IMG/VR virus record: IMGVR_UViG_2526164602_000021
Source: a virus
Taxonomy: Duplodnaviria > Heunggongvirae > Uroviricota > Caudoviricetes
Length of the DNA: 22,731 nucleotides
Reading direction: 5' to 3' (one strand)
The stretch's first letter is position 1. Each line of letters opens with the position of its first letter. Position numbers: made by a program. Shown here piece after piece: positions 18,001 through 21,000 of the stretch.

Positions 18001-21000
18001 GCAGCAACATCGCGCTGGCGCACCTGCATATCAGTAATGGTTGCGTTTGCCAGCTCCAGCTCTCTGGCTTTTTTATCGCGCTGCGCTTTGTAGGTGATGA
18101 CGTTATCGCGGTAATGATTCAGCCCCAGACTAAGCGCACCACAGACCACCAGCAGAATAACGGTAAACGCGGAAAGCATTCGGTTTATGCTCACCCCACC
18201 AGCCCTGCCGAAGTCAACGCCATCCAGGTTATGGAAAGAAAAAGAACAACCAGCATTAGTGAAAATGAAATACCGACGATTACACAAAGGCCCTTCGCCA
18301 GCATTATGAGTTTGTCTGACATCTTTACCCCTTAATAGCAGTAATTAACCGGGCAACCACCCATAAAAACGGAATCAGCCAGACCAGCAAAAATTTCCAG
18401 TCCGTTTTTATCATCTTCATGCTGCGGTAGCTCTCCATGCAGCAAGCAGACCAGCAATCCACTGAACACCTTTTGGGGTGAATTTAACCTGCGTAAAAGC
18501 ATGACCATTGCCCGCCTCGCCCGTTTTCACGCTAAACCGCCCCGCATCCAGGTGATGCGAGTAAGGCGTCATTTTTCCAGCGAGGCGATACATTATTCCG
18601 TTCTCCAACAAAAACAGCCGGAAATCGGTTTCTTTGATACCGAGTAACTTAGCAACTTCCCGGAATCCCATCAGACCAGATGCTTCAACATAGTTATCAA
18701 CAAATTCAGCCTTCGGCGCTGCTATTGCCAGTTGATTTTCCAGCACTGCTTTCTGTTCAGCCAGTTTTGCCGCAAATCGCAACGCCTCAGGTAAAGTCCG
18801 GGGGATCTGAATACCATGCATCGCTTTGAGTCTTGCCAGCACAGAACGACGAACGGCCTTTGACTCCCTCATGCCAACGAGCATCATCTGGTCAAAATCC
18901 AGATCATAGTATGCCGTTCTTGTCTGGTTATTGTTTAACCGGAATTTTTTTCCGGTTCCATCAAGCTCTAGCTCATCCTCAATTTTTGCAAGAAACTTAC
19001 GCGGTTCATGAGGGACTTCTCCGGCTTCTGCCCGGGCTGGATTAATAATGTTATTCAGAAAATCCAGACTACTCATGGATATTTCATGATCGACAGAAAT
19101 CATCTCTTTCATGGTTGATTCCTTTTAGTGATGAACCCTGCGCACAGGAATAACCAGCCCAAAGAGGGTTAACCAGACCACTGCCGGTTATCCACCAGGG
19201 CTCATCCTGAAAGGTTCTTTGGTTTATTTACGCTTGTGCGAAGCGCAGAAATGACAAAGGCACCATTACGGTGCCTCTGCGTGAAATAATCTGCCTAACT
19301 TTATTCACTTACATTTTGCCAGTTCGCAGGATTTCGTGTTATCCGCCCGCGCTGGCCAACGTCATTTTTCAGCAAAATATTCTGCTTATCTGTCGATTCC
19401 CCAGCACGCCAGCGCGCTCTCCTGGTCACGACGGGATACCTGACCATAACAGTTATTTGAGCGAATACGGCAGTCTCTGCCACCGTCCTTAATCCACCAG
19501 CGAATCGCTTCGCAGGCACCTTTTCGATCTCCTGCATTAATTCGTTTATAAAACGTCGACGGGAAACACTTACCGGGGCCAATGTTGTACGGACAGAATG
19601 ACGCAATCCCCGCTTTCTGGGGTTCGGTCAGTGGCACTCTGATGTTTTTCTCCACCCATGCCAGCGCCTTATCACGCTCAATGGCGTTAACCCGGTCGCA
19701 TTTTTCCTTCGACAGCTTCATGCCAGGAATAACAGGCTTACCATCCACCCGGGTGGCTCCACGGCAGATGGTCCAGATACCCGCACCATCACGGTATGCT
19801 GTGGTGTGGTTACCTCCTTTTCATCCAGAAACTGGTCGAGGATTTCAGGCGCAGGCGCACCTGCGGCAATCAGCGCCAGAACGGCAGCCGACAGGCCGTA
19901 TCTGATTTTTGCGTTCATGGATATTTATCAGGGTTTATCGATTTCAAATCCCTGGATATGTTAAGTCTTCAGGCCAGCGGTGGAGTCTTCAGAGAACCCG
20001 TAATTATTCCCGGTAGTTTTCCTCTGTAGGTTATCAACACATCCTGCGCCTCTAAAATTACGGGACGCTTTTCCGGTAACGGACCATCCCCTTCACATAA
20101 CCCGGCAGCAACATCCATGAAAAACTGCTTCGCCTGCTTTTTCGCCTCAGCTTCGTAAAACTCCAGCGTGGCACCTTCAGTACGGTCAAGACTAATCGCC
20201 ACATGTGGCAACAACAACGACGGATGCCCGCCAATTTCAAGTGCCACAGTAACAGCAATCTTATCCGGGTAATTATTTATCTCTTTAACAACCAGTTCGT
20301 ATTTTTTCTTCATCGCTTTAGTCTCCCCGCGCCGTCTTACGGCGGTCCTCCCTGATTTTGAAATACAGGTTAGTCAGATACGTCAGCAGGCCAAACAGCA
20401 GACTCCCCAGTACACCTATTGCCACCCACTGGGACGGAGAGACTTTGTCCAGCAGTTGCAGTAACCAGTATCCCGTCCCTACCGCTGACGTGGTGTATGA
20501 CACACCTGTTGTTATTTTTTCCATCTGGTACATACCCCGTCTCCCGTTATCCGGAAGCTGACAACAATAAAAAAGCCACCAGTTAACTACTGATGGCTCT
20601 GATAACTCATGCAGGCGTCTCAGACGACCCACTGACACTACCGGTGAGTTTAACGATACCTTCCATTTGACTGGCTCACTTTTTATGATGATGCCGGTGC
20701 ATTTATCTCCAGCACCAGACTTTCTATCTCAACGCCATACGCTGCATTTTTTGTAACATCCGTCAGCGTCAGCGCATTCAGTCCCAGTGTCAGACTGTCT
20801 TTTATAACCTGGAATGCCGGGCCAGCCACTCCATTCAGTTTCGGAGTAACCGTGGCACTGCCGGCGGTGAACACCAGCTCCAGCGTCTGCCAGTCGTTAC
20901 CGTAATCGCCGAACTCCCCCAGCTTCGTGTTTCCGGCTTTCCTGTGATGCATCAGATTCACTCTGCCGTCAGTGGTCTGAGTAAAGTACGACATCAGGAA

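Follow-up and report, generated by a model that had tools for sequence, protein, structure and literature searches.

Endolysin R of phage 21 (3hde, 3hdf) and RrrD of E. coli DLP12 (4zpu) are lysozymes with a PF00959 domain, and residues Glu35, Asp44 and Thr50 are taken here to be the catalytic triad of the phage 21 enzyme. Closer to the gene considered in this work is the endolysin R of lambdoid and Stx prophages of E. coli O157:H7 (WP_000992086.1), a protein of 177 aa that is annotated as 'lysozyme' and encoded within a cassette in which the genes are ordered holin, YdfR, lysozyme, antirepressor and Rz. The stretch of DNA that was analysed (hereafter the window) comprises the whole of the 22,731-bp contig AKLW01000023.1 from assembly GCA_000267165.1, a 2013 draft of E. 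coli O157:H7 strain TW11039. All 533 nt of the endolysin gene in the window are the same as those of the O157:H7 prophage gene, and the gene order on the minus strand also matches, with a P21-type pinholin gene being followed by YdfR, the putative SAR endolysin, an antirepressor and Rz/Rz1. The locus is a lysis cassette of the ordinary kind, belonging to a lambdoid prophage of E. coli O157:H7. An initial annotation, made from the sequence alone, had described a prophage that retains its pinholin and spanins while carrying a broken endolysin gene, and the former genes were indeed found to be intact, including the PF04971 holin, the PF03245 spanin Rz and the Rz1 reading frame embedded in the latter (Table 1).

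The repaired protein, which is equivalent to the intact orthologue, matches the Phage_lysozyme family (PF00959) over residues 33-167 (E=1.4e-24). The 120-aa C-terminal piece that is encoded by the deposited sequence also matches this family, at profile positions 27-125 (E=1.6e-15), and the two matches together indicate that the observation of a split gene is not due to chance. The original description of the product as a T4-lysozyme-like endolysin, putatively of the SAR type, was borne out by a phmmer alignment of the repaired protein with phage 21 R (3hde, 3hdf) and RrrD (4zpu), in which Glu35, Asp44 and Thr50 are in register; the triad spacing of Glu-8x-Asp-5x-Thr falls on the same residues of phage 21 R in the alignment to 3hde_A. 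Residues 8-24 (GLSAAVLALIAAGAPAP) constitute, by composition only, a hydrophobic segment with 59% Gly/Ala/Ser. By analogy, the gene and the adjacent P21-type holin gene would fit a SAR endolysin/pinholin pair.

Table 1. Coordinates of the lysis cassette, the endolysin lesion and other genes referred to in the text; positions are those of the 22,731-bp window.
Feature	Position	Strand	Remarks
Portal/protease gene	9210-11594	-	Poly-G tract at window about 10230-10250, gene position 1346
Rz i-spanin, 152 aa, PF03245	17721..18179	-	Intact; identical to L001
Rz1 o-spanin ORF embedded in Rz	17783..17968	-	Lipobox-like VSAC motif, read from sequence; intact
Antirepressor gene (ANT/KilAC domain, PF03374), between endolysin and spanins	18417..19112	-	Intact
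Endolysin gene R (putative SAR-type, GH24/PF00959)	19386..19918	-	533 nt here vs 534 nt in every intact orthologue
120-aa GTG-started ORF	19386..19748	-	C-terminal two thirds of lysozyme domain; without Glu35, Asp44, Thr50 and SAR segment
66-aa ORF	19718..19918	-	SAR segment and Glu35 (35 native residues), then 31 out-of-frame residues; annotated EIO67141.1
Missing-base site	19813..19815	-	GGAAGG to GGAGG on gene strand; Glu35 codon GAA now GAG, then frameshift
YdfR/DUF1327 gene, between holin and endolysin	19969..20313	-	Intact
Class II phage-21-S-type holin (pinholin family), 71 aa, second start Met4	20318..20533	-	Intact; PF04971 'Bacteriophage P21 holin S', E=1.7e-32
nanS-p (SASA family) esterase gene	20683..22541	-	At least 4 ORFs from five 1-nt insertions: 21343, 21346, 21861, 21869, 22073

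The endolysin gene extends on the minus strand from an ATG at 19918 to a TAA at 19388-19386, and its 533 nt are, as had been noted previously, one short of a whole number of codons. An intact orthologue, as anticipated in the initial annotation, is present at positions 19437-19970 of L001, the closest orthologous locus, from O157:H7 (534 nt, WP_000992086.1), where all 533 positions are identical (533/533) and one extra base is present. Similarly, in a set of 5,426 complete E. coli genomes the full-length matches that rank highest are to 'lysozyme' genes of 534 nt, with 533/533 identical positions and one gap. In all relatives, one continuous frame encodes the SAR segment, triad and C-terminal lobe, whereas in the deposited sequence this frame is broken after Glu35. 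The two halves of the protein do therefore lie in different frames, as originally described: frame 0 encodes 66 aa, comprising 35 native residues (MNAKIRYGLSAAVLALIAAGAPAPEILDQFLDEKE) that end in Glu35, followed by 31 unrelated residues and a stop, while the remainder of the endolysin, GNHTTAYRDGAGIWT...WGIDR (GNHTTAYRDG...WGIDR), is read in frame +2.

The break had been mapped initially to a short G run at about position 19813. The site itself was upheld (19813-19815), but the identity of the lost base was not. In the alignment, GAAAAGGAAGGTAAC in L001 and four phage paralogues stands against GAAAAGG-AGGTAAC in the window, which when viewed on the plus strand represents a change from CCTTCC to CCTCC. 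Since the site reads G2-A2-G2 in five of the five aligned intact paralogues, as opposed to G2-A1-G2 in the window, the lost base is, judging from this alignment, the A of the GAA codon for Glu35 (T on the plus strand) and not a G. The assignment of a single-base deletion to the catalytic Glu codon is in keeping with the alignment to phage 21 R, in which the affected residue is Glu35. By chance, the broken codon still reads Glu, and putting back either an A or a G at the site gives the same 177-aa protein.

Compared with WP_000992086.1, the window is thus without one A in the Glu35 codon, with the result that the ORF is split into pieces of 66 and 120 aa. It is predicted that neither of the deposited ORFs could be active: no activity is expected from the 66-aa product because Asp44 and Thr50 are absent, or from the 120-aa ORF because the whole triad is missing together with the export segment. 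The deletion also turns AAGGAAGGT into AAGGAGGT at 19811-19818, so that the gene acquires an internal, perfect Shine-Dalgarno match. As read from the sequence, this match is not followed by a start codon at a suitable spacing, and internal initiation from it was rejected as a candidate for that reason.

As judged from sequence comparisons, it seems likely that the one-base gap arose as an error in the sequencing or assembly of the deposited draft and does not represent a mutation of the strain itself. When a 70-nt probe spanning the site was compared with complete E. coli genomes, 4,236 copies of the segment were matched in 880 genomes, all of which copies contain the extra base; the highest identity was 98.6%, and no copy reached 99%. 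A 28-mer containing the deletion had no matches in IMG/VR, in which the intact 29-mer had at least 120, and the 66-aa frameshift peptide (EIO67141.1, 'lysozyme [Escherichia coli TW11039]') was found on one contig only among about 15 billion proteins. The same GGAAGG to GGAGG deletion is present in two lysozyme contigs of draft DEC4E, and a GG to G deletion is present two bases upstream of the site in draft PA22 (AKLI01), the accession of which is in the AKK-AKM range, like that of TW11039. Both the DEC4E and PA22 loci contain further 1-nt indels with respect to their closest references, many of which are homopolymer deletions. The remaining members of the frameshift-peptide cluster derive from assemblies at chromosome scale, in which the 534-nt gene has lost single bases at up to six places. 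Three chromosome-scale assemblies have multiple 1-nt deletions in the lysozyme gene, and multiple deletions of this sort in the assemblies of the cluster are a clear error signature. A real lesion would be expected to recur when the same strain or its relatives are assembled independently; the only other carrier was the indel-rich draft DEC4E.

L013 (CP022407.1, positions 1501-2040), which was deposited as a complete chromosome, has six 1-nt deletions in one 534-nt lysozyme gene, including one at CCAGG; a 62-aa fragment of this gene sits in RefSeq as WP_101329704.1. The presence of the 120-aa ORF on 23 contigs was considered as independent support for the frameshift and was rejected, as the start of the ORF in the other contigs displayed is 3-58 nt away from a contig edge; its occurrence on 22 other contigs is a contig-edge effect only. 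In other strains, short-read assemblies are interrupted within the endolysin gene, at a distance of about 10-65 nt downstream from the site, and the deletion site therefore lies at a repeat boundary.

The indel load elsewhere on the contig also bears on the nature of the gap. Between positions 16001 and 20512 the window is identical to L001 except for the endolysin gap, and between 20513 and 22731, where the contig ends, there are 6 substitutions and 6 one-base insertions, such that the comparison over 16001-22731 comprises 7 indels and 6 substitutions. The six insertions are located in the 2.9 kb between the endolysin gene and the contig end. Five of them break nanS-p, which is intact as a 1,854-nt ORF in L001 and to which the copy in the window is otherwise about 99.7% identical, and the sixth is at 22580, upstream of the nanS-p gene. 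Most of the six lengthen existing runs (A6 to A7, A5 to A6, C3 to C4 and CC to CCC on the gene strand). With four more net 1-nt indels, two in gpT (6404 and 6408) and two in intergenic A runs (7693 and 7729), the contig contains in total ten net 1-nt indels besides the endolysin deletion, and two further genes, nanS-p and gpT, are broken. During natural decay the ratio of indels to substitutions would be expected to be lower than that seen here, and real pseudogenes to be biased to deletions. The indels on the contig, being as frequent as substitutions and mostly insertions, look like sequencing error, unlike natural decay.

The changes at 6404 and 6408 are 1-nt insertions (A4 to A5 and C to CC, respectively) within the portion of the G/T region that encodes tail assembly protein T, and the net change of +2 would break the gpGT frameshift product. 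A mixed consensus of collapsed paralogues was considered as a source of the indels and was not supported either for the lysozyme site, where five intact paralogues are identical, or for nanS-p, where three or four paralogues could be aligned per insertion site and none has an indel there. Some nanS-p paralogues differ by substitutions close to the insertions at 21861-21874.

The draft genomes of 26 O157:H7 strains were produced either from Illumina data alone with Velvet, or from Illumina plus 454 FLX/XLR data with Celera, the route per strain not being stated (PMC3593324). That of TW11039 has 71 contigs, compared with 393-1288 for most strains (PMC3593324), and from this low contig count we infer that it is a 454/Illumina hybrid assembly. 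In the event of an artefact, a base-calling or consensus error of the hybrid Celera assembly would have led to the loss of one A. The error would fall in a purine tract (A4 G2 A2 G2) where the many paralogous prophage copies stop being identical and where assemblies tend to break. The living strain would then hold an intact endolysin gene of 534 nt, encoding 177 aa. Extrapolating from phage 21 R, the protein would be exported via its N-terminal SAR segment, would be released when the membrane is depolarised by the pinholin, and would then cut peptidoglycan by means of the Glu35/Asp44/Thr50 triad.

Several observations argue against an artefact. Apart from the gap, the window matches L001 perfectly over the 4.5 kb surrounding the gene, with the nearest other indel being about 1.5 kb away, so that the deletion is not strictly inside a visibly bad stretch. 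Additionally, an AA dinucleotide is short for a classical 454 undercall, and Illumina reads, if part of the hybrid assembly, should have helped with correction. Finally, the portal and J genes are already flagged as frameshifted in the orthologous prophage of complete genomes, and real decay of the element is therefore plausible.

Some of these observations also favour the principal alternative, namely that a real frameshift, private to TW11039, has rendered this endolysin copy a pseudogene, which is nevertheless considered unlikely. The prophage alone could, in that case, permeabilise the membrane via the pinholin without wall degradation, and lysis would depend upon endolysins from other prophages in the cell. 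The deposited sequence does itself carry the deletion, within 4.5 kb that is otherwise error-free relative to L001, and the orthologous prophage, with its flagged portal and J genes, looks to be decaying under weak selection. Moreover, O157:H7 genomes hold 6-13 matches to the gene, and the loss of one copy should cost little. Set against this are the absence of the allele from all 4,236 copies in the 880 complete genomes and from IMG/VR, the restriction of the peptide to one contig, and the ten other net 1-nt indels on the contig, which are mostly insertions and about equal in number to substitutions outside recombinant patches. The identical deletion in DEC4E, an unrelated draft, would also require independent events at a site that is not a homopolymer. 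The inference that the prophage is unable to make active endolysin, drawn in the initial annotation for the case of a real lesion, is not sustained by these data, given that the allele was found in 0 of 4,236 copies and not at all in IMG/VR, that the contig is rich in indels, and that the deletion recurs in the indel-ridden DEC4E draft. It is rather improbable that the deletion is real in the sense that the TW11039 prophage keeps its pinholin and spanins and has lost its own endolysin, with the purine tract acting as a recurrent soft spot for lysis inactivation in O157 prophages.

The purine tract (GAAAAGGAAGG) might also be envisaged as a true hotspot of mutation, or as a contingency tract, by which the endolysin is turned on and off within populations of the prophage, an idea that is suggested by 1-nt deletions at three positions of the 11-nt tract in TW11039, DEC4E, PA22 and two chromosome-scale assemblies. 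However, every assembly with a tract deletion has other 1-nt indels, many of them homopolymer indels, in or near the gene, and the variant present in the window is found in 0 of 4,236 copies in RefSeq complete genomes. The runs here are only 2-4 bases, whereas known contingency tracts have far longer runs, and the explanation is regarded as highly improbable. That the gene is expressed despite the break, through programmed -1 ribosomal frameshifting or transcriptional slippage, is scarcely credible, since although the deletion creates AAGGAGGT, and perfect Shine-Dalgarno-like sequences of this kind can stimulate frameshifting, the stretch from the break to the Asp44/Thr50 codons contains no slippery heptamer of the form X XXY YYZ, as read from the sequence, and all relatives encode the protein in one frame, the split arrangement being conserved nowhere.

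The poly-G tract in the portal/protease gene is G6 in FRIK944, which has a single 861-aa ORF, G5 in the window and in L001, and G4 in PV15-279. With G5, the stop of the portal ORF overlaps the start of the next ORF (ATGA); what PGAP flags as a portal 'frameshift' may therefore be two genes in their natural arrangement, or else a tract of variable length. Because the tract is G5, and not G6, in both the window and L001, the prophage looks defective already. Also in the portal/protease gene, at 9654-10017, is a 162-bp (54-codon) tandem repeat that is present in 2.2 copies, compared with 3.3 in L001. The window is without 200 nt in this region, which is not a whole repeat unit, and the frame is changed as a result; the missing 200 nt could reflect collapse of the repeat in the assembly.

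Between tail genes K and L, at 425-2108, is an Ant antirepressor gene together with two Arc-family genes. Stx1-prophage loci in complete O157:H7 genomes match this segment with 100% identity, whereas the remainder of the contig tracks another prophage, indicating either a mosaic prophage or a chimeric contig. A closer complete-genome orthologue was sought via this insert, but the search led to Stx1 prophages with an RrrD-type lysis cassette, which were unusable for the lysozyme site.

Returning to the view that the gap is an error of the draft, the case serves as a caution that single-base frameshifts in prophage genes, in drafts of genomes with many near-identical prophages, should not be interpreted as biology without read support. 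Annotation of such contigs has already placed split 'lysozyme' proteins (EIO67141.1 and similar) in public databases. If the deletion were true, it would represent one more dead gene in a defective-looking prophage, in a strain that has several other endolysin copies, and neither lysis nor toxin release would be much affected.

With regard to known classes of error, the window resembles the homopolymer-type errors of 454 and long-read drafts in that 1-nt indels are about as frequent as substitutions, most of them lengthen or shorten base runs, otherwise intact genes are broken, and the indels cluster toward the contig end. The lysozyme site is unlike a typical homopolymer error in being only a 2-base run, which is short for the class. 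With regard to known endolysins, the gene in the window is like those for phage 21 R and RrrD in encoding, by composition, a hydrophobic N-terminal segment rich in Gly, Ala and Ser, and in having a PF04971 P21-type holin as partner, although the sequence match is distant (E about 1e-16). The family represented in the window differs from phage 21 R and RrrD in having an extra Cys-rich C-terminal stretch, and in the presence of a YdfR gene between the holin and the endolysin.
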